Shown in pieces: positions 23,710 to 62,713 of a stretch of 64,000 nt of DNA (positions are counted from its first letter, which is position 1; each line of letters begins with the position of its first letter). The stretch is from a phage. The position numbers were made by a program, and so were the translations under genes. The notes beneath the pieces were generated by a model. The model did not search any database and was not told the origin of the DNA. It saw only the letters and a list, made by a program, of their open reading frames with translations. The stretch lies in NCBI GenBank assembly GCA_029220445.1, contig GCA_029220445.1_3666.1; one strand, given 5' to 3'.

Positions 23710-24024
23710 CTACCAGGTCACTGTCAAGTAGGCAACTGTGTTATTTTTCTCCGGAGAGATGCCAACAACATCCACCTGCAGGCCTCCTGCCCTCAAATCC
23801 CCAACAATGTGTGGGAAGTAGTCTGAGAGATGCGAGGGTAGATTTATCGAAAATCCGCATCCCAGAAAGCCTGCTAACGCTTTATTTTGTATCTCCCCTA
23901 CAATCGCATCATAAATGGAGTTAAGCTCGTCAGGGAGCGTTACAGGACGTTTTAGCGCTAACTGGTGTAATTTGTCCTTAGCACTCATTTTCATTTCAGG
24001 TCTACCTCTGGTGGTGCCAACCAC
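23710..24024 (-). CDS. hypothetical protein (104 aa)
   Basis: ORF; overlaps downstream methyltransferase start by ~30 nt. Confidence 0.45.
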   Translation of the reverse strand: MVGTTRGRPEMKMSAKDKLHQLALKRPVTLPDELNSIYDAIVGEIQNKALAGFLGCGFSINLPSHLSDYFPHIVGDLRAGGLQVDVVGISPEKNNTVAYLTVTW

Positions 24025-24524
24025 ATAAATGGCGGCAAGCCTAAACGGTTTTTCTTATCCCACACAAAATATGCATATGCTTGCCCGTCAGTTCTACCAT
24101 TTGATTGAAATGACGGACGCTTAGATATTGTGATCACAGTGGTAGGTGCATTATCAAGCCACCATTCAAATCTGGCTTTGCTTTCCAGAAAATTAAGACG
24201 TAAAAGCATAATAACTACGTCAGCATCTTTCAACGCCTTGTCTACAAACTCACGAGCTAAGCTGTATGGTGGGTTGGTGATAATACAGTCAACATGGTTG
24301 TATTCTGTATTCAGATAGTCAACACCTTCTTGGATTTCTCCCCATGCAGATCCTAACGGCATACGGGAGTAGAACACACCTGAGGCACTATTCCTGCAAG
24401 GCTCTAAGTAGGTCCAGTCTTCTGGGAACGGAATAAGGTCATACAGCCCTTCTGCACACCACTCCGGTGTCACATACTCATCGTAGGCGTTACGTTGTTC
24501 ATCAGGTTTTCTAGCACAAGTCAT
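23991..24524 (-). CDS. DNA N6-adenine methyltransferase-like (177 aa)
   Basis: Catalytic NPPY motif (CIITNPPYSL) and upstream EPCRNSASGVF SAM-binding-like block; same motif order as the MTase at 39340-40158. Confidence 0.6.
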   Translation of the reverse strand: MTCARKPDEQRNAYDEYVTPEWCAEGLYDLIPFPEDWTYLEPCRNSASGVFYSRMPLGSAWGEIQEGVDYLNTEYNHVDCIITNPPYSLAREFVDKALKDADVVIMLLRLNFLESKARFEWWLDNAPTTVITISKRPSFQSNGRTDGQAYAYFVWDKKNRLGLPPFMWLAPPEVDLK

Positions 24525-24539
24525 GCAAATCTCCAGATC

Positions 24540-24568
24540 ATAAAAGCCCTCCGAAGAGGGCTTTAGAA
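24540..24568 (-). terminator. intrinsic terminator for minus-strand transcripts (agccctc-ttcg-gagggct + T-run)
   Basis: Perfect hairpin with T-run on minus strand after ClpP-like gene. Confidence 0.6.
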
Positions 24569-24575
24569 TTAATGT

Positions 24576-25625
24576 TTAAACTTCTTCGACAATTCCTGCA
24601 CCCAGGATTTTTTCATTGAGCTCTTTTGCTGTTTTAATAATATTATCTACCAGACGCTTGCGAGTCTTATCTTTCACCTTAACCTCTTCACCGCCGTTCA
24701 GAGTAGTCTTCAATTGAGACAGAATATCCTGAAGTTCAACGACAGAGAATCTCTGCAGATCTTCTGAAGTAATCTCACCCAGGGCAATTCGGACGGTCTC
24801 GCCACTTTCCATCTGCAGATTCAGGAACACAGTGTGAACATCACCTTTCGAACCACCCGCTTTTGCAGATTCAACAGCATGAACTAACTCATCTAAAGAT
24901 GTGCACTGGTGAATCTCCGGAAGACCTGCTTCACCTAACACGCCTTCTTCATCACCTTTTGCCAGAAGCTTTTTCGGTTTTTGTCCGTTCTGGATGCGTT
25001 GTATGTTGCCTTCATCCAGAATAATAGCTCCAGTGCGTGCTGCCAGCTCTTCTCCGTCCAACCACACTTCGCCACCAGCTGTGATGGATGCGATCTCATC
25101 TTCTGTCAGCACCCCACCGTAGTATTTTTCGATTAAGCGTTCGAAATGTTTTTTCCAGTAGCTGACCTGAGTATTCATGTTCACACCGTTACCATAAGTG
25201 CCACCTTGGTAGTAGTGGAACATAAACTCTGTGTCCGGAGCCACAGTGCGTTCTTTGCAACCCAGCCATAAGATTGTTCCCGCAGAGCAGCACATCCCTT
25301 CAGCATGTGCAACAACGCTTGCCTGAGACTCGCGGAATGCCTGCAGATAAGCCATTGCAATGTTCACGCAACCCCCAGGACTATTGATGATCACCCGAAT
25401 GCTTTCTTCCGGCTGAGCCATACGGATCGTCTGCAGACGAGACATATGATCTTGTAAGTCTTCCAAATCGTCGATATAAAGAACGTGGTCAACAACTGGT
25501 GTTGGGTAGCTGTATGTTTCCATAATACCACCCGGCATACCGAACATTTTATTACTCATAGGTTCGAAACCGTTCTGTTTTTCTTTCATGCCGTGTACCA
25601 TGGTGCTACGAGGTGTTAAATTCAT
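24576..25625 (-). CDS. ClpP/S14-S49-like serine peptidase with ~130-aa C-terminal extension (349 aa)
   Basis: INSPGG, GMCCSAG (Ser position) and MFHYYQGG (His position) match ClpP-fold motifs. Confidence 0.65.
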   Translation of the reverse strand: MNLTPRSTMVHGMKEKQNGFEPMSNKMFGMPGGIMETYSYPTPVVDHVLYIDDLEDLQDHMSRLQTIRMAQPEESIRVIINSPGGCVNIAMAYLQAFRESQASVVAHAEGMCCSAGTILWLGCKERTVAPDTEFMFHYYQGGTYGNGVNMNTQVSYWKKHFERLIEKYYGGVLTEDEIASITAGGEVWLDGEELAARTGAIILDEGNIQRIQNGQKPKKLLAKGDEEGVLGEAGLPEIHQCTSLDELVHAVESAKAGGSKGDVHTVFLNLQMESGETVRIALGEITSEDLQRFSVVELQDILSQLKTTLNGGEEVKVKDKTRKRLVDNIIKTAKELNEKILGAGIVEEV

Positions 25626-25685
25626 GAGAAATCCTTAATATTGGAAGTTGAAAGCTATTTATTTAAACCTGATTCACATTTACCT

Positions 25686-25997
25686 TTATTTAGCAATCAC
25701 TATAGAGTACTTACGATTGTCAGAAGCATCGCAGCTCAATGATTGCCAGTCTACCACATACCACGTATCATTGTCAACAATCACTTTATCGCCTGTTCTG
25801 TAGCAGGTGCTGCTTTCAATAATCCGAGACTCGATAAAGAATCTGTGTCGGCGCTCACGTAGCAACGCTAAGTTGATTATATTGCCACCACTGTCCTTGA
25901 TCCATACATTCTTGGATCCTTTATATGCCAGAATTGTCTCGCCGTTATAGACAAACAGGCAGTATATTTTATTTAGTTTCTCTTGTATTGTGGCCAT
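25686..25997 (-). CDS. hypothetical protein (103 aa)
   Basis: ORF on minus strand. Confidence 0.5.
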   Translation of the reverse strand: MATIQEKLNKIYCLFVYNGETILAYKGSKNVWIKDSGGNIINLALLRERRHRFFIESRIIESSTCYRTGDKVIVDNDTWYVVDWQSLSCDASDNRKYSIVIAK

Positions 25998-26100
25998 ACT
26001 ATCTCCTTCTCCTTGTCTTGTCCGATAATAATATCTAAAGCTTACCTGTTTGTCAACAACTGTTTTAGATATTTAAGGGTGGAATAACCACCCTTCTGTA

Positions 26101-26889
26101 TTACTCGGAAACAGGGGTCCAAATATGATTTGCACGATCCTCTATAAGATTGAGAGCAATCTGACGACCCAACCCGGAACGAACGACATCGTCTGGACTA
26201 TCAAAGCTGATCATTCCAACCTCGGGATCTGGATGACGAGTAAAGAAATCCGTCACCCATGCAAGGCCAGATTTACCAGGGATGTCACGTTGGCTATTAT
26301 CGCCCATAATTACAAGGGTGGCCTGATCAGAGATCCTTGTGATAATTGACAACATTTCTTCAGGGTTAGTTTGCTGTGCCTCGTCAATCAGGACAAAGCA
26401 TCGCTCATCGAAACTACGACCACGAATGCTTTCAACCTCACAAATCTCGATACGGCTGTTCTGACCGTCTCCCAGCATTGCGGCAAAAGCACCTTTGCCA
26501 ACACGACGACAAATCGTGTCCATCATGCTTCGAAGATAGGGCCACAGTTTCTGCATTGCATTTCCAGGTTTAAATCCTGAAGTCTTTCCTGTCTGAACGT
26601 AAGGACGTGCAACAATGATCTTATCAATCTCGTTCTTACGCAGAAGATCACCTGCATATGCAGATGCCATGAATGTCTTACCGGATCCAAACACACCGTT
26701 TACAATAATAATCTTACGTGACCCTAGATAATCAAGATACTTTTGCTGCTTCTTATTCATTGGTCTGAGAGCTGGAGCGGTGTGCTCTCTTTCGTCAGCA
26801 AATTTCTCAGCAGCCTTACGCAGGCGATCAGATTTGCGAGCCTCTCTAGCCTCATCACGCATGCGTTTTGTTTCTTTAGCTCGACCCAT
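26101..26889 (-). CDS. phoH: PhoH-like ATPase (262 aa)
   Basis: Walker A GVFGSGKTF, IIVARPYVQTGKTSGFKPG and LIDEAQ...MGDNSQRD blocks typical of PhoH family. Confidence 0.75.
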   Translation of the reverse strand: MGRAKETKRMRDEAREARKSDRLRKAAEKFADEREHTAPALRPMNKKQQKYLDYLGSRKIIIVNGVFGSGKTFMASAYAGDLLRKNEIDKIIVARPYVQTGKTSGFKPGNAMQKLWPYLRSMMDTICRRVGKGAFAAMLGDGQNSRIEICEVESIRGRSFDERCFVLIDEAQQTNPEEMLSIITRISDQATLVIMGDNSQRDIPGKSGLAWVTDFFTRHPDPEVGMISFDSPDDVVRSGLGRQIALNLIEDRANHIWTPVSE

Positions 26890-28477: not shown

Positions 28478-29605
28478 TCATTTACCACAAATCTTCTTGT
28501 ATACCTCTTCTACCGTGTCAAACACTTCAGGCCTGTAGTAGAAAAACTCAGTGCTACCGTCAAATTTTACAGGAAAGTTTATTTTATACTTGCTGAAGGC
28601 CTTATGCACAGATTTTTCTAAATCTGCCATGTTTTGAGTTGATCCTTCCCACGTTTTCGCCAGGTAGAGATCATAAATACCTGCCCCTGCCCTTTTGGCA
28701 CTTTTCAATATCCTATCTTTTCTCTCTTCGACACTGACGCTAATACCGATCTTCATAAGTGTTGGTACTTCTAAGTCATCAACCATAATGTAAAGTTTGC
28801 CGTGATTGTACGATAAAAAGCCGTAGTTAGCACATCTAGGGCACCCATGTCCTTGCTTGAGCCTAATAGGAGCAGGAGACCATTCATAATCACAAATCTT
28901 ACATCTACATAATACTTTTGCACTACCGTTTTTAATTTTTCCAAGCACTTTAATACTTGGATTGACAACCTTTATATGCCCTACCCATTCCACATGGGAT
29001 CTCTTTGCATTGCCTTTACATCTAGGACACCCATGCCCTCGTTTAAGATGGGATGGTCTTGCTAGCCATTCATGACTGCAAATTTTGCATCGTGCCAATA
29101 CTGGTGTATCGCTATTTTTAACTCTTTCTACTATTTCAATATATGTATTTTTCTTCGTTATGTCCTCGACCCACTCGGTATGGGCTATAGCTCTGCTTTG
29201 TGCGAATTTTAGCTTGCCGCATCTAGGGCACCCATGTCCTTGTTTAAGAAGATAAGGCATTGCTGACCATTCATGACTGCAAATTTTGCAGCGGCACGGC
29301 ACTTTTGTTCTGCAGCTTATTATTTCTCCAATCACTTCGACATAAGGATTGACCTCTTGGATAACATTCAACCACTCCTTGTGTGGTATAATGTGGCTTT
29401 GTGCCATTTTTAGCTTTCCACATTCCCGGCAGCCTCGTCCTGCAAGGTGTTGGTGGGTAGCTTGTTCAAATTCTCCATGATATGGGCAGATAATTATAAC
29501 CTTGGTGCAGGCATTTACATACTCAACCTTAGAGTAATCATACTTATCTCCATGAACTGCTTTTGCCTTCTTTATAAACTCATCTGTTGTAAGTTTTCTG
29601 GACAC
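28478..29605 (-). CDS. putative free-standing homing endonuclease-like protein: four tandem zinc-ribbon repeats plus C-terminal GIY-YIG-like (T5orf172-type) domain
   Basis: Repeats CPYHGEF...GRGCRECGK / CKICSHEW...GHGCPRCGK x3; C-terminal GKLYIM...KIGIS...R block; inserted between nrdD and nrdG. Confidence 0.6.
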   Translation of the reverse strand: MSRKLTTDEFIKKAKAVHGDKYDYSKVEYVNACTKVIIICPYHGEFEQATHQHLAGRGCRECGKLKMAQSHIIPHKEWLNVIQEVNPYVEVIGEIISCRTKVPCRCKICSHEWSAMPYLLKQGHGCPRCGKLKFAQSRAIAHTEWVEDITKKNTYIEIVERVKNSDTPVLARCKICSHEWLARPSHLKRGHGCPRCKGNAKRSHVEWVGHIKVVNPSIKVLGKIKNGSAKVLCRCKICDYEWSPAPIRLKQGHGCPRCANYGFLSYNHGKLYIMVDDLEVPTLMKIGISVSVEERKDRILKSAKRAGAGIYDLYLAKTWEGSTQNMADLEKSVHKAFSKYKINFPVKFDGSTEFFYYRPEVFDTVEEVYKKICGK

Positions 29606-56293: not shown

Positions 56294-56577
56294 GAGTTGC
56301 TGCACTGTTTATTGTGTGCTTGTTATTGTGTGGGTGTGCAACCAGCGTTGAGAGAGAATACAAGATTGACCCTCCAGATGTAGGAAGGTTGATTGTTAAA
56401 CCCCCGGAAGGTGCCATGAAACCACCTGCTAAAGCTATACCTTTAAAGAAAGGTGCGCCAGATGCGGTGAATTCTGGCATTATGAGGGATAATAATCTGT
56501 CTTGTAGCAATGATAGAGCTAAATTGATCATTTTGCAAGACTATATTAGAACACTGTTTCCAAAGGAGAGAGGTTAA
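56290..56577 (+). CDS. outer-membrane lipoprotein spanin component, Rz1-like (95 aa)
   Basis: Signal peptide with lipobox LLCGC; proline-rich mature region. Confidence 0.6.
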   Translation: MRVAALFIVCLLLCGCATSVEREYKIDPPDVGRLIVKPPEGAMKPPAKAIPLKKGAPDAVNSGIMRDNNLSCSNDRAKLIILQDYIRTLFPKERG

Positions 56578-58124
56578 TGTCTAAGATTTACGGACCGTGT
56601 TCTGAAAAGCAGAAGATGATCCTAGAAAACGATGCAGATATTTTGGTAATCGGCGGTGCCGCAGGGTCTGGCAAGTCGTTCCTCTTGCAGTTGATGCCGC
56701 TTAAAATTATTGATGACCCCCACAGCTCTGTGGTTATGTTCCGAAGAACAACCCCGCAGTTGGAAGGTGAGGGTGGACTATGGCCTAAAGCAGTAGCTAT
56801 TTATAGTGATCTGCCTGAAAACATTAAGCCAAAGTTTAGAGAGAAGGATCATAAGTTCATTTTTCCACGGTTTGATCCGAGCACTGGCAAGTGGGATAGA
56901 AGCAAAAAGGGAGCTGTTGTAAAATACTGCCACATGGAGTATGTACAAGATAAGCTTAACCATCAGGGGCTTGAGTACACCATGGTTTGCTTCGATGAGG
57001 GCACGCAGTTCGAATGGGAGCAGATAGACTATCTGATGTCTCGTCTGCGATCTCAGTCAAAGTATCCATCAAGAATGGTTATCAGCTGTAACCCCGATTC
57101 AGAACACATGCTTGCCAAACTGGTTAGATGGTGGTTGGACGATGAAGGGTATCCAGATCCGGAGAAATGCGGTAAGAAAAGATATTTTATCCGACGCGAC
57201 GGTGAATTTATATGGGGAGACTCTAAAGAAGAGTTGATAGAGAAATACACCACGGTTAACGGACTGGGTGTGGAGATCAAGCCAAGACCGTTGTCATTCT
57301 CGTTTATAGGCGCAACAATATTCGATAATCCTGTCTGCTTAAGAGACAACCCAGAATACCTTGCTTTCCTTGAAGGTCTGCCGGAACTGGAAAAAGCTCA
57401 ACTTCTTCATGGTAACTGGTTTGCAAAGCCTGAGGGTGCAAACTATTTTCAAAGATCTTTCCTTCGTGATGCCGATAGAGTACCCCTTGGATCAGTATCT
57501 TGCAGGGCATGGGATAAGGCAGGAACCGAGAGAACTTCCGGTAATAAATTTCCTGACTTTACCGCCAGTATTAAGGTAAGTAAAGATAGCGACGGCTTTT
57601 ATTACCTGTCCGGTGATTATTGTCCTGAGAACGTGGATGACGGGAGGTATTCCACAGGTCTGGAAGGCAAGTTCTGTAAAAAGGCTGGTGAACGAGATGT
57701 GATCATCAGGAAACAGGCGCAGTTTGATGGTGATGATTGCATAATCGTATTCTCTGTGGACCCTGGTCAGGCAGGTAAGAGTGAGTTCTTAACCTCATCC
57801 AGATCCTTGCTCGCCGAAGGGTTCAGGGTTGAAGAAGACCCAATGCCTTCCAACAAATCTAAACTGACAAGGTTCTCACCTTTTGCCAATCTTGCACAAC
57901 AAGGAATGGTGAGGATTGTAAAATCCAGTTTCCATCCTGATACTCTGGAAGCATTTCTGACTGAACTTGAAAAATTCAACGGGGAAAGATCAACATTTAA
58001 CAGAAAAGACGACTGGGCAGACTGTGTAGCTTCTGCGATTAATTTCCTGGAGAAAGAGGAGGTAGCACTTCCTTGTGTGATTCCATCAATCTCATCACCT
58101 TCTATGTTCAAGCGTTTTATCTAA
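56577..58124 (+). CDS. terminase large subunit (515 aa)
   Basis: N-terminal Walker A ILVIGGAAGSGKSF, Walker B-like MVCFDEG, C-terminal nuclease-like region; precedes portal gene. Confidence 0.85.
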   Translation: MSKIYGPCSEKQKMILENDADILVIGGAAGSGKSFLLQLMPLKIIDDPHSSVVMFRRTTPQLEGEGGLWPKAVAIYSDLPENIKPKFREKDHKFIFPRFDPSTGKWDRSKKGAVVKYCHMEYVQDKLNHQGLEYTMVCFDEGTQFEWEQIDYLMSRLRSQSKYPSRMVISCNPDSEHMLAKLVRWWLDDEGYPDPEKCGKKRYFIRRDGEFIWGDSKEELIEKYTTVNGLGVEIKPRPLSFSFIGATIFDNPVCLRDNPEYLAFLEGLPELEKAQLLHGNWFAKPEGANYFQRSFLRDADRVPLGSVSCRAWDKAGTERTSGNKFPDFTASIKVSKDSDGFYYLSGDYCPENVDDGRYSTGLEGKFCKKAGERDVIIRKQAQFDGDDCIIVFSVDPGQAGKSEFLTSSRSLLAEGFRVEEDPMPSNKSKLTRFSPFANLAQQGMVRIVKSSFHPDTLEAFLTELEKFNGERSTFNRKDDWADCVASAINFLEKEEVALPCVIPSISSPSMFKRFI

Positions 58125-58226: not shown

Positions 58227-59783
58227 GTGTCCAAAAAGAACCGCAGGAAACACAACGCCACAGCCAAAACTGTGAATAAATCTGGGAACGCAGGCGCACC
58301 AACTCATAATGTTCGTATGAGTGAGATCGGTTCTGGCGCACTTTCCCAAATTATGGCAGAATCGCAATCTATGATGGTTGAGGAATTGCGTTGGCCTCAG
58401 CTGATTGCCACAGTGGAGACTATGAAATGTGATTCCACAGTTGCTACTGCCTTAGATACAAAATATGTTTTCATCACGAAAGCATTCAATGATTTTAAGA
58501 TCCTTTATAATGTTAAAAGTGAAGACTCTAAGAAAGCTGCTGAGCTTATAGAGTATTCTTTGCGTAATTTGGCAAACCAACAAACTCTTCGAGATATTGC
58601 AAGAAGCGCAGCTACCTTTAACGAGTATGGTTTTTCACTGTTTGAGAAAGTATACCGCAGAGAGAAAGAAGGTAAATATGCCGGGATGCTTCTTATTGAT
58701 AAAATTGCATTCCGACCTCAGGCCAGTTTGTCCAGATCAGAGCCGTTTGTCTTTGACAAGAATAGTAGAACACTGACAGGTATTTATCAGTCACCTAATG
58801 CATTTCTAAACACTCAGAATGCACGCTGGGCTGGACCTCTTGCTGCAATGCCTTCAAAAGGCTTTAATGAGCCTGAAATTTTCATCCCTGCTAAAAAGCT
58901 TATGCTCATGACCCTGTCAGGAACAGAATCTAACCCTGCAGGTGTGTCACCGATGATAGGTTGCTACAGATCTTTCCGTGAGAAAGTTCTGATTGAAAAC
59001 CTTGAGGTTGTTGGCTGTTCCAAAGACCTTGGTGGTGTGCTTGAGCTGAAAATTCCTTCCAATATTTTGAACAAGGCCAGCATTGACCCGAATTCAATGG
59101 AAGGGAGAATGGTTGCAGACCTTATGCTTGACGCAGCAAACGCCCATAGTGGTGAGCAAAGTTTCTTTATACTTCCGTCTGATAGAGATAAGTCTGGTAA
59201 AGAGCTTTACTCCATGACCCTGAAGGGGGTTGACGGTATGGGTAAGCAATATTCCACTAAAGATTTGATCGATGCCCGTAAGAAGGCGATTCTTGACCGT
59301 TTCGGTGCTGGCTTTATTAACCTCGGTAACGATAACGTTGGATCCTTCTCTCTGTCTGAGTCAAAACAGTCTATCCATGGTCATTTTGTTCAGCGTGATA
59401 TAGATATTATCACTGAAGCCTTCAATAAGGATCTTATTCCACAGCTTCTGGCATTGAATGGTATCATCCTTGAAGATGATGATATGCCTAAACTGAAACC
59501 TGGTCTGATTGAAGAGGTGGACATGGAGAGCTTCTCCAAGTTTGTCCAGAGGATCGGTGCTGTAGGTTACTTGCCAAAAACTCCTGCAGTAATTAATAAG
59601 ATTCTTGAAGTAGGCGGGTTTGATGAAAGATTTGACGAGGACATGGATCAGGAAGAGCTGATGAAGCTCTTGGGCCAGGACATCAGTAGGGCTGGTGATG
59701 GAATGGCTGCAGGATCCACTGGTAACGGCACTTCTAAGATGTCATCAACCAGAGATAATTCCATATCCAACATGGAAAATTAA
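58227..59783 (+). CDS. portal protein (518 aa), GTG start
   Basis: Size and position between terminase and head-assembly genes; GAGGGG RBS before GTG 58227. Confidence 0.7.
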   Translation: MSKKNRRKHNATAKTVNKSGNAGAPTHNVRMSEIGSGALSQIMAESQSMMVEELRWPQLIATVETMKCDSTVATALDTKYVFITKAFNDFKILYNVKSEDSKKAAELIEYSLRNLANQQTLRDIARSAATFNEYGFSLFEKVYRREKEGKYAGMLLIDKIAFRPQASLSRSEPFVFDKNSRTLTGIYQSPNAFLNTQNARWAGPLAAMPSKGFNEPEIFIPAKKLMLMTLSGTESNPAGVSPMIGCYRSFREKVLIENLEVVGCSKDLGGVLELKIPSNILNKASIDPNSMEGRMVADLMLDAANAHSGEQSFFILPSDRDKSGKELYSMTLKGVDGMGKQYSTKDLIDARKKAILDRFGAGFINLGNDNVGSFSLSESKQSIHGHFVQRDIDIITEAFNKDLIPQLLALNGIILEDDDMPKLKPGLIEEVDMESFSKFVQRIGAVGYLPKTPAVINKILEVGGFDERFDEDMDQEELMKLLGQDISRAGDGMAAGSTGNGTSKMSSTRDNSISNMEN

Positions 59784-59850
59784 AAATTATCAACACAGGG
59801 GGTTGCAAAACCTCCTTTGGCGTGATAAAATAATCCACATGGGGAATAAT

Positions 59851-60270
59851 ATGCCACAGGAAGAAATGATTTCCTACGAAATCATCTACGAGCCTGACAC
59901 TAAAGATGCTCACGGTGAGTGGATGAGTAAAGACACCATCAAAAAGGCTAAAGATAACTGGGACGCAGCATACGCCGCAGGCCTAGTTTCTGAGAACCTT
60001 TTCCACTTGACCTCTACAGATGCTTTCACCATTGAAAAAACGTGGATTCAAGAAGAGTTTGATGTTGTAGTAATTGGCACTGAGCAGGTCATCAAGGCTG
60101 GCTCTTGGGTTGCTAAAGTTAAATACCATAATCCTGAACTATGGGAAGCTAAGAAGGCTGGCATTGTTGGTGGCCTAAGCATTCAGGCAACAGGTAATGT
60201 TGATGAAGAAACTGGTGAAATTACCAACGTAAACTTCGGGATCAGTGTTGTAGAAGAGGGCAATGAATAA
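59851..60270 (+). CDS. candidate prohead protease, HK97-type (140 aa), tentative
   Basis: DAHGEWMSKDTI resembles the D-x-H-G-D block of S78 proteases; position between portal and scaffold; ATG 59851 preferred over track start 59695. Confidence 0.35.
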   Translation: MPQEEMISYEIIYEPDTKDAHGEWMSKDTIKKAKDNWDAAYAAGLVSENLFHLTSTDAFTIEKTWIQEEFDVVVIGTEQVIKAGSWVAKVKYHNPELWEAKKAGIVGGLSIQATGNVDEETGEITNVNFGISVVEEGNE

Positions 60271-61247
60271 TGTCTGAAAAAACGATTACTATTAAAGAGA
60301 AGGGGATTGCCCTGTGCCACAAGGCGCAAGGCTATAGCGCTAACAATAGACCTGTATCTCTTTTGATGAAGAGTGATCTTAAGCCTGAGCAGTTAACAGA
60401 CGATATTGTTAAGGCACTTCGCCAAGTTACTGTGGAGCTTAGTTTTGAAGAATACCTGCGTCGTTTCTTCGATATGTGGTATGATGATGCTAAAGCACTT
60501 GCACACATGCTTGGTTTTGAGATTGAAGAGGAGGCTTGGGCTAAAGAGCATCCTGATTGGGAATGGGCGCAAGCTGACGCAGAGTCTTGTATTGCATGGC
60601 TGGAAGAGCGTTGTGATAACGTGACCATTCATAAGGCTGCAAAAGAAGGCAAGCAGCTTAGTGTGGTAGATCAGTACAGCCTGTTAAAAACACAACAGAT
60701 TTTTGAACAAGTAACCGCTGATCTCTTCGATAAAGAAGGGAACCTGATCAAGGCGGTACAGGAACCTGCTGAGGTGGATAAAACTACCGAGGTGGATGAT
60801 GTTGCAAAATCCGCAAATACCGAGGAGAATCCGGTGGACGTAACCAAAACTAAAGAGTATCTGGATCTGCTGAAGCAAGTAGAAGAGCTGAAAGCAACCC
60901 AGAGTAAAGCTGAAGAAATCATCAAGGCCCAGGTTGAAGTTGAAAAAGCTAAAATGCTGACTAAGGCTCAAGCTTTAAGCTTTGTTGGTGAAGAAGATCA
61001 CGCAACCCTGGTTGACTTCATGCTGGAAAAAGCTAACGAACCTATCGTAGCTATGCTGGAGAAAGCTCAAGCAAAAATTGAAGAGCTGGAAGCAGAGGTG
61101 CATAAAACTAAAGAAGAGTTTGCCACCACTGAACATGGTAATGATGGCGAACCTGTTGTGGATGATATTGCAAAATCCGCAGAAGAAATTCTTGCTGAAA
61201 ACGTTGCAAAAGCACTTGCTCGTGCACGTGCAGAATCTAACAAATAA
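60270..61247 (+). CDS. putative scaffolding protein (325 aa)
   Basis: Acidic, helical/coiled-coil composition; immediately upstream of decoration and capsid genes. Confidence 0.5.
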   Translation: MSEKTITIKEKGIALCHKAQGYSANNRPVSLLMKSDLKPEQLTDDIVKALRQVTVELSFEEYLRRFFDMWYDDAKALAHMLGFEIEEEAWAKEHPDWEWAQADAESCIAWLEERCDNVTIHKAAKEGKQLSVVDQYSLLKTQQIFEQVTADLFDKEGNLIKAVQEPAEVDKTTEVDDVAKSANTEENPVDVTKTKEYLDLLKQVEELKATQSKAEEIIKAQVEVEKAKMLTKAQALSFVGEEDHATLVDFMLEKANEPIVAMLEKAQAKIEELEAEVHKTKEEFATTEHGNDGEPVVDDIAKSAEEILAENVAKALARARAESNK

Positions 61248-61705: not shown

Positions 61706-62713
61706 ATGATTACTCGTAAAGATGAATTTGGCATTGTTGATTTAGGTGCTACTCTGGACCTTGTTCCGCGTCAATTCCGCCTGATTACTGGTATGGATCT
61801 GTTCGAAACTCGTCTCGGCACCTCAACAATTGCTCAGATCGAGCGTGTTGATGAAGTTGTAACAGACATTCCGGCACGCCGTCGTGGTGGTGAGCGTAAC
61901 TACGTTGGTAATGAACGTGCTCAGGTTAAAAACCTGAACATCCCGTTCTTCCCTCTGGATAAAGGCATCACTGCTGCAGATGTTCAGAACTTCCGTCGTT
62001 ACTTCACTCCTGATGCTCCGAAAACTGTTCAGGACGTAGTAACCCGCGTTGTTCGCCGTATCCGTGTTTCCCATGAAGCACTGCGTGAGAAAGCGCTGTT
62101 CCAGGCTATTCTGGGTAAATCCTATGCACCTGGTGACGCTACCTGCCAGTATGACTACTACACTCTGTGGGGTGTGGATCAGAAGTCTGTTGAGATTGAC
62201 CCTGCAAAAGCAGATCAGGACCCCATGGAGGTTCTGGAAGAAGCTCGTCTGCACATCGCACTGCAAGCTGGTGATAACGCAGCTGGCTATCGCATCGTAG
62301 CCCTGTGCTCACCGGAGTTCTTCAGTGCTGTTACCCATCACCCGCTGGTAGAACTGGCATACACCTATTACGGCTCTGCTCAGGAACCTCTGCGTCGCCG
62401 TCTGGGTGCGGGTGGTCAAGACAGCGTATACCGTGTGTTTGAGCATAAAGGTATCACCTTTATCGAAGATATCTCTGGCAATATTCCTAAGAAAGAGGCT
62501 CGCATCCTGCCGATGGGTATTGATCAGATGTTCCAGCTGCACTTTGCTCCGGCAGACGATGTTAACGAAGCAAACACTCCAGCACAGGAACTGTATATGT
62601 GGTATAAACACTCTGCATACCTGCGTGAAGAGAAGATTGAATCTGAAACTTCCATGCTGGCAGTTAACACCCGTCCAGAGCTGGTTGTTAAAGCAACTCT
62701 GAAAAGTGAATAA
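61706..62713 (+). CDS. major capsid protein (335 aa)
   Basis: Size, position after portal/scaffold/decoration genes, strong RBS and downstream terminator. Confidence 0.75.
   Translation: MITRKDEFGIVDLGATLDLVPRQFRLITGMDLFETRLGTSTIAQIERVDEVVTDIPARRRGGERNYVGNERAQVKNLNIPFFPLDKGITAADVQNFRRYFTPDAPKTVQDVVTRVVRRIRVSHEALREKALFQAILGKSYAPGDATCQYDYYTLWGVDQKSVEIDPAKADQDPMEVLEEARLHIALQAGDNAAGYRIVALCSPEFFSAVTHHPLVELAYTYYGSAQEPLRRRLGAGGQDSVYRVFEHKGITFIEDISGNIPKKEARILPMGIDQMFQLHFAPADDVNEANTPAQELYMWYKHSAYLREEKIESETSMLAVNTRPELVVKATLKSE

Follow-up and report, generated by a model that had tools for sequence, protein, structure and literature searches.

A ClpP-fold serine peptidase encoded away from the head genes of a Vequintavirus

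We analyzed a window of 64,000 nucleotides of phage DNA (the whole stretch taken from contig GCA_029220445.1_3666.1 of NCBI GenBank assembly GCA_029220445.1) with a focus on a minus-strand gene for a ClpP-like serine protease, which the open reading frame (ORF) listing places at 24576-25625 with a length of 349 amino acids (aa). The gene is the orthologue of rV5 gp117 (ORF122), and we use the name gp117 for its product, which is probably a non-structural enzyme rather than the protease that matures the capsid. Translation starts at an ATG with an AAGGA ribosome-binding site ahead of it.

Positions 24000-26200 of the window were 99.8% identical in DNA to Escherichia phage V5/rV5, in reverse orientation, and the protease was 99.4% identical in protein sequence to its V5 counterpart (tblastn). 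The head region was nearest to phage FFH2, with 99.1% identity. Judged by these identities, the source phage is a Vequintavirus that is mosaic relative to V5. About 18 GenBank records labelled 'Campylobacter phage' (MG0656xx, e.g. MG065654, MG065655 and MG065666) were 97-99% identical in both regions tested, and their identity to an E. coli Vequintavirus suggests that they are mislabelled or contaminant genomes.

Genes of the gp117 type have long been known and annotated. The rV5 genome paper lists ORF122 as 'ClpP (ATP-dependent) protease subunit' with its best hit in ICP1, phage Bas56 (AlexBoehm, BASEL) names the orthologue 'ClpP-like protease', and the DNA of the gene is conserved across 122 phage records. 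The enzyme is a real and conserved one.

Domain layout and active site

Profile searches placed gp117 with the ClpP-type peptidases. The Pfam CLP_protease match (E=8e-13) scored 49.1 bits against a gathering score of 20.2, PHROG 5410 ('ATP-dependent protease') matched aa 24-345 with E=8.6e-155, and phrog_1827 matched with E=5.8e-41. The choice between families S14 and S49, left to profile assignment by the first-pass annotation, came out for CLP_protease; an S49 enzyme (signal-peptide-peptidase or lambda gpC type) was rejected, with Peptidase_S49 not among the Pfam families found at E<=1. Other weak, sub-threshold Pfam matches were to NfeD1b_N and SDH_protease. An AlphaFold2 model built on an alignment of 19 relatives had a predicted local distance difference test score (pLDDT) of 80-91 across aa 45-212, and the top 50 Foldseek matches in the PDB were all ClpP (E of about 5e-9, template modelling score to target 0.54-0.73). 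As modelled, the protease domain has the ClpP fold. The gene, its domains and its catalytic codons are as follows.

24576-25625, minus strand: gene for the 349-aa ClpP-like serine protease, orthologous to rV5 gp117/ORF122 (V5 annotation, Pfam, PHROG 5410)
25494-25625, minus strand: N-terminal segment, aa 1-44, predicted disordered (pLDDT <50), with conserved FGMPG and Y-x-Y-P motifs
24990-25493, minus strand: ClpP-fold protease domain, aa 45-212 (AlphaFold2, Foldseek and HMMER alignments to PDB ClpP chains)
24840-24989, minus strand: variable linker, aa 213-262, rich in Lys, Glu and Gly (pLDDT 35-65; gapped, variable alignment columns)
24591-24839, minus strand: conserved C-terminal domain, aa 263-345 (a beta-hairpin and a short helix, followed by two helices joined by an extended loop)
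25284-25286, minus strand: codon of the catalytic nucleophile Ser114, which aligns with Ser97 of E. coli ClpP (codon checked)
25215-25217, minus strand: codon of the catalytic base His137, which aligns with His122 of E. coli ClpP (codon checked)
25068-25070, minus strand: codon of Glu186, candidate third triad residue, topological equivalent of ClpP Asp171

The ClpP-fold motifs first read from the sequence hold up in this layout, with INSPGG at aa 80-85, GMCCSAG at aa 110-116 carrying Ser114, and MFHYYQGG at aa 135-142 carrying His137. Ser114 and His137 did not vary among 19 close and 35 diverse members of the family, and across the 35 diverse members G84, G85 and Tyr169 were invariant as well. 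Position 186 in these 35 sequences was limited to Asp (16), Glu (12) and Gln (7), with Asp in ICP1 Gp211, and in the model Glu186 is the likely third catalytic residue. A MAFFT mapping onto Asp171 was discarded because MAFFT placed the C-terminal half of this domain wrongly against E. coli ClpP, and the hhalign alignment with E. coli ClpP ended at residue 150, short of the Asp171 region. The domain also contains a Gly-rich handle strand (QGGTYGNG) and a long helix (aa 147-169).

Outside the protease domain, the family alignment showed F28, G29, Y40 and P41 to be conserved in the N-terminal segment. The long C-terminal extension, likewise noticed at first reading, covers about aa 213-349 and is conserved within the subfamily. 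A helix in its linker (aa 244-255) was restricted to the Vequintavirus group. The C-terminal domain proper, with F293, E297 and R322 invariant, occurs in the Vequintavirinae and some metagenomic relatives; most of the wider clade lacks it or carries something different. It had no match in Pfam and no sequence match in the PDB, and its one significant match in BFVD was an unnamed protein of 303 aa. The domain is acidic (isoelectric point 5.15), which argues against simple nucleic-acid binding. Two candidate identities were rejected, namely a shared capsid-targeting signal (hhalign probability 0.2% against the phage's own scaffold) and the same domain as the C-terminal extension in ICP1 (probability 0.4%). 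We regard the domain as a lineage-specific recruiting or regulatory module with no informative relatives.

Relatives of gp117 and the head module

A profile of the 19 relatives was searched against 1.84 billion proteins, yielding 7478 cluster representatives with E<=1e-3, of which 1780 reached E<=1e-10, and tblastn found 924 phage records with the ClpP-like gene. gp117 thus belongs to a large phage-specific clade, PHROG 5410/1827. We viewed the surroundings of the gene in 15 further genomes or contigs: ICP1, the Pakpunavirus phages PAK_P2 and EM, a Sugarlandvirus, a T4-like Schizotequatrovirus, a Barbavirus, the Otagovirus phages phiPsa381 and REC1, Vibrio phage helene, Serratia phage Kashira, an N4-like Nahantvirus, a Certrevirus, a Mydovirus and two metagenomic contigs. 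All 15 loci had a replication, nucleotide-metabolism or early-type setting, and none lay between portal and capsid genes. The Schizotequatrovirus gene, for instance, is flanked by genes for dihydrofolate reductase and a recombination protein, and the Nahantvirus gene lies near the genome end, with a nearby terminase gene on the opposite strand. One distant metagenomic relative (27% identity; metagenomic loci L016 11172-11636 and L017 3497-3961) was located about 2 kb upstream of a phage peptide deformylase gene in a nucleotide-metabolism block.

T4-like phages have gp21 as their capsid protease. At least four lineages carry both a gp117 relative and a separate capsid protease: the Schizotequatrovirus, ICP1 (predicted capsid protease gp125 in the late capsid operon), the Barbavirus (a 469-aa peptidase between portal and capsid; PMC6715854) and siphovirus P26059A (XkdF and ClpP; PMC5964084).

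The window itself follows this pattern. Its head module, at 58.2-62.7 kb, runs in the order portal, XkdF/S78_2 protease, scaffold, decoration protein and lambda-E-type capsid protein, and includes the following genes.

58227-59783, plus strand: portal protein (Pfam Portal_Mu, PHROG 113)
59851-60270, plus strand: XkdF-type (Peptidase_S78_2) prohead protease (Pfam E=3.8e-17; 62.9 bits, cut-off 24)
60270-61247, plus strand: head scaffold protein, 325 aa (position, PHROG 2970, Bas56 label)
61706-62713, plus strand: major capsid protein of the lambda gpE type (Pfam Phage_cap_E, E=4e-40)

The first-pass annotation had put gp117 about 35 kb from the portal and capsid genes and had pointed to a small candidate protease at 59851-60270. 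The distance is confirmed at 33-37 kb, with the head genes on the opposite strand, and the Pfam match identifies the small candidate as a Peptidase_S78_2 (XkdF) enzyme. The size of this ORF is 139-191 aa. The expert annotation of Bas56 calls it 'prohead protease' and the next ORF 'head scaffold protein', and we consider the XkdF-type enzyme the probable true capsid-maturation protease. RefSeq NC_011041 and FFH2 name the same ORF (59695-60270, plus strand; rv5_gp063) 'DNA methyltransferase', seemingly after PHROG 1530, a profile of 379 positions of which positions 218-373 alone match the XkdF ORF; the BASEL labels are correct. The large terminase gene (56577-58124, plus strand) is one unbroken ORF of 515 aa; the V5 record annotates it as three joined segments that enclose an HNH endonuclease gene.

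Whether gp117 is packaged, and whether the capsid protein is processed, was examined in the published mass-spectrometry table of rV5 virions, in which 19 proteins had passed filters. None of the four gp117 peptide strings that we searched for was present in this table, and the single peptides searched for the XkdF protease and for the scaffold were likewise absent. The major capsid protein was covered from residue 5. Because this peptide begins directly after Arg4, the protein lacks a cleaved N-terminal propeptide and its N-terminus is intact. Since the lambda-E-type capsid protein is not N-terminally processed, the head protease presumably targets the scaffold or the portal.

The canonical capsid-maturation set is therefore complete without gp117. 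Of the two explanations offered at first reading, a prohead protease encoded unusually far from its substrates is countered on three grounds: the head module holds an XkdF-type protease next to the scaffold gene, relatives of gp117 sit outside head modules in phages with a capsid protease of their own, and no tested gp117 peptide was found in the rV5 virion table. Orthology to prohead proteases carried at the same locus, set by the first-pass annotation as its refuting condition, was not found; the Vequintavirus orthologues at this locus are labelled ClpP or ATP-dependent protease and never head protease. gp117 is very probably not the prohead protease. With the evidence counting against this first explanation, the second, a role other than capsid maturation, is favoured; host-protein degradation, the example given at first reading, would be one conjectural form of it.

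Another possibility is that gp117 is a second morphogenetic protease, whose C-terminal domain would target assembling heads or tails and which, in addition to the XkdF enzyme or in its place, would process the scaffold, the portal or further virion proteins. The curated families nearest to gp117 are indeed head-maturation families. Its best NCBIfam match was NF045542, 'head maturation protease, ClpP-related', followed by a ClpP-like protease/capsid fusion family and then by cellular ClpP models, and NF045540 and PHROGs 1684, 94, 2976 and 133 point the same way. Because the closest curated family is a ClpP-related head maturation protease, an evolutionary link to capsid proteases is plausible. 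Scaffold-like or capsid-targeting C-terminal extensions are common in prohead proteases of the ClpP and S49 types, and such enzymes are expected to be absent from mature virions, as the gp117 peptides searched for are from the table. Against a morphogenetic role, every head-protease match fell under its curated cut-off (61 bits against 120 for NF045542). The gene follows a sigma-70-type promoter on the strand opposite to the head module and is 33 kb away from it, and a protease and a scaffold are encoded in that module itself. A T4-like phage and ICP1 are among the phages that combine a gp117 relative with a separate prohead protease, the C-terminal domain is unlike the scaffold and varies or is missing across most of the clade, and the major capsid protein is not N-terminally trimmed. 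We consider this second-protease role unlikely.

Clp-ATPase docking, promoter and PhoH neighbour

Cellular ClpP models gave a still poorer fit. TIGR00493 (clpP) scored 33.1 bits against a cut-off of 308.6, and the remaining ClpP equivalog and subfamily models were also far under their cut-offs. By profile score, then, gp117 reaches the curated threshold neither of cellular ClpP nor of the ClpP-type head proteases, and it is somewhat nearer to the head proteases.

The pocket in which E. coli ClpP receives the IGF/IGL loops of ClpX and ClpA, which we take to be formed by Y60, Y62, F82, I90, M92, F112 and L114, aligned to R77, I79, E99, H107, E109, T127 and A129 of gp117. Five of these seven positions are conserved polar or charged residues (R77, E99, H107, E109 and T127, each invariant in the 19 close relatives), and the remaining two vary (I/V at 79, A/S at 129). 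The ClpP helix segment with L48, F49 and A52 was deleted in the alignment. The axial-loop sequence of ClpP lacked a counterpart in gp117, with hhalign matching E. coli ClpP from residue 22 onwards. No AAA+ unfoldase is annotated in the V5 record at 52-95 kb (approximately 21-64 kb of the window). Because the docking pocket is not conserved, the axial loop is missing and no AAA+ unfoldase is annotated in that part of V5, the 'ATP-dependent' label is unsupported by the sequence, and gp117 probably cannot dock host Clp ATPases.

These observations bear on another explanation, in which gp117, true to its database label, would stand in for host ClpP, or mix with it, as the proteolytic subunit powered by host ClpX or ClpA, and so redirect ATP-dependent proteolysis during infection. 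The Pfam CLP_protease gathering score was passed, the ClpP fold, catalytic residues and handle region are all present, and a comparative review of jumbo phages suggests that phage ClpP, with its patchy distribution, may act on host proteins (PMC7824862). Set against this are the five polar or charged pocket positions, the deleted L48/F49/A52 segment, the N-terminal axial-loop similarity that was not found, the 33 bits against 308.6 for the ClpP equivalog model and the lack of an annotated AAA+ unfoldase gene in that part of V5, and we hold a ClpX- or ClpA-driven subunit to be quite improbable.

The genes around the protease gene were those of a minus-strand block, with a PhoH-like gene and a methyltransferase-like gene on either side, as the first-pass annotation had described.

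23991-24524, minus strand: DNA methyltransferase-like gene, immediately downstream (PHROG 799), a conserved neighbour in Vequintavirinae and Barbavirus
25686-25997, minus strand: small ORF of 103 aa (PHROG 5456) between promoter and protease gene, predicted to be co-transcribed with the latter
26028-26056, minus strand: sigma-70-type promoter, TTGACA-17 nt-TATTAT, with 11 of 12 consensus matches, equal to P121 of the V5 record
26101-26889, minus strand: PhoH-like ATPase gene, upstream on the same strand (NCBIfam and PHROG matches)

The minus strand showed no terminator-like site between the small ORF (gp116) and the protease gene, and the two are probably co-transcribed. The rV5 paper places these genes in an 82-163 transcription unit, apart from late genes 27-66 with their different motif, and early or middle expression of the protease gene is predicted. 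Further upstream, a 375-aa ORF (28478-29605, minus strand) has about four tandem repeats of about 45 aa with zinc-ribbon-like CxxC...GHGCPRCG motifs, followed by a distinct C-terminal region.

Ten of 16 hand-picked cases, a count that is not controlled for phylogeny, had PhoH upstream of the protease gene and on its strand: this Vequintavirus window, the Mydovirus, the Certrevirus, Kashira, one metagenomic relative, ICP1, the Barbavirus, helene and the two Otagovirus genomes. The PhoH and protease ORFs overlap by a few bases in both Otagovirus genomes, and in the Barbavirus they are separated by a gap of 53 bases with nothing annotated inside, while the other seven cases have between one and six small ORFs or a methyltransferase gene in between. 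PhoH was missing nearby in the remaining six cases (two Pakpunavirus, the Sugarlandvirus, the Schizotequatrovirus, the Nahantvirus and one metagenomic relative). Inherited gene order is the simplest reading of this synteny, because the same myoviruses have further nearby genes in common, for ligase, dCMP deaminase and ribonucleotide reductase, and a functional coupling of PhoH and protease is possible from gene order. PhoH is a helicase-like P-loop ATPase and not an AAA+ unfoldase. That the two proteins pair up as a phage ATPase and its peptidase, or build a machine linked to the processing of RNA or ribosomes, as the shared order and the overlapping Otagovirus ORFs might suggest, is very improbable in view of this ATPase type, the six cases without PhoH, the unrelated small ORFs often lying between the genes, the possibility of inherited synteny and a count made without statistical control for shared ancestry.

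Proposed function and comparison with known systems

On balance, the more probable account is that gp117 is a non-structural ClpP-fold serine peptidase of a phage-specific clade, which is not the capsid-maturation protease and which acts in the cytoplasm independently of ClpX and ClpA. The fold, the catalytic residues, the membership in the clade, the genomic context and the separate head protease are established here; the oligomeric state, the timing of expression, action without ClpX or ClpA, and host or phage targets in the cytoplasm are what we infer.

Host RNA polymerase would probably transcribe the gene from the sigma-70-type promoter together with the small upstream ORF. Because the gene sits in a replication and nucleotide-metabolism block, production of the protease would precede or accompany DNA synthesis and not coincide with that of the late head proteins. 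gp117 retains the Gly-rich handle strand and the long handle helix of ClpP, which in the model are compatible with ring stacking; since both are retained, gp117 may assemble into a ClpP-like ring or barrel that cleaves polypeptides within a sequestered chamber in the infected cytoplasm. Because the docking pocket is polar or charged and the axial-loop sequence is absent, it would not work within the ClpXP or ClpAP machines of the host. Recruitment of substrates or of a partner would most likely go through the conserved N-terminal motifs or through the lineage-specific C-terminal domain with its flexible linker.

Several points weigh against this account. The best curated match is to a head-maturation family, and several head-protease PHROGs match too, so that by homology a morphogenetic role is conceivable. 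The rV5 virion mass spectrometry, with its 19 proteins, would miss proteases that leave the head or digest themselves, and the XkdF peptide was absent from it as well. The equivalence of Glu186 and Asp171 was drawn from the order of secondary-structure elements alone, as both MAFFT and hhalign left this region unaligned, and the use of the promoter and the timing of expression are predictions. Literature searches for experimental work on phage ClpP-like proteins, this clade included, turned up annotation-level statements only.

To existing annotations the present analysis adds the phage's own head protease, the failure of membership in both curated groups, the non-conserved docking surface, the orphan C-terminal domain and the PhoH neighbour. 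A broader proposal, to which we give little credence in its full form, is that the PHROG 5410/1827 proteins are a distinct class of phage ClpP-fold peptidases, derived from ClpP-type prohead proteases and reused in the cytoplasm without ClpX or ClpA, where they would act on host or early phage proteins and possibly with PhoH. Our results suggest that the 'ATP-dependent' or ClpP label overstates what is known of the enzyme. If the clade is truly one of host-directed or regulatory proteases, it would represent a widespread and unstudied takeover function, and the pairing with PhoH could give a first functional handle on phage PhoH, an orphan 'auxiliary' gene.

Four known systems can be set beside gp117. 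With bacterial ClpP (MEROPS S14; TIGR00493) it shares the fold, the Ser and His aligned to Ser97 and His122, the INSPGG oxyanion region and the handle strand and helix. It differs from E. coli ClpP in its low identity (about 20%), in having an extra N-terminal region of 44 aa and a C-terminal region of about 137 aa, in lacking a conserved docking pocket or axial loops, and in a candidate third triad position occupied by Asp, Glu or Gln. The ClpP-related head-maturation proteases (NF045542/NF045540; PHROGs 1684, 94, 133 and 2976) are the best-scoring curated relatives of its protease domain; they too are phage-borne and frequently have C-terminal extensions. Unlike them, gp117 scores below the cut-off, is encoded outside the head module and has a C-terminal domain unrelated to scaffold. 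The XkdF-type prohead protease (PF14550) is, like gp117, a phage serine protease of this window, but the two belong to unrelated Pfam families, and only the XkdF-type enzyme fills the canonical slot between portal and scaffold. The fourth system comprises the non-head 'ATP-dependent protease' genes of PHROG 1827 (ICP1 Gp211, KVP40-type, Pakpunavirus, Otagovirus, Barbavirus and Sugarlandvirus), which are of the same clade; ICP1 Gp211 is 36% identical to gp117 across the protease domain. Their proteins are mostly 180-290 aa long, with a C-terminal extension that is missing or different from that of gp117, and their genes share its genomic setting, often with PhoH upstream.

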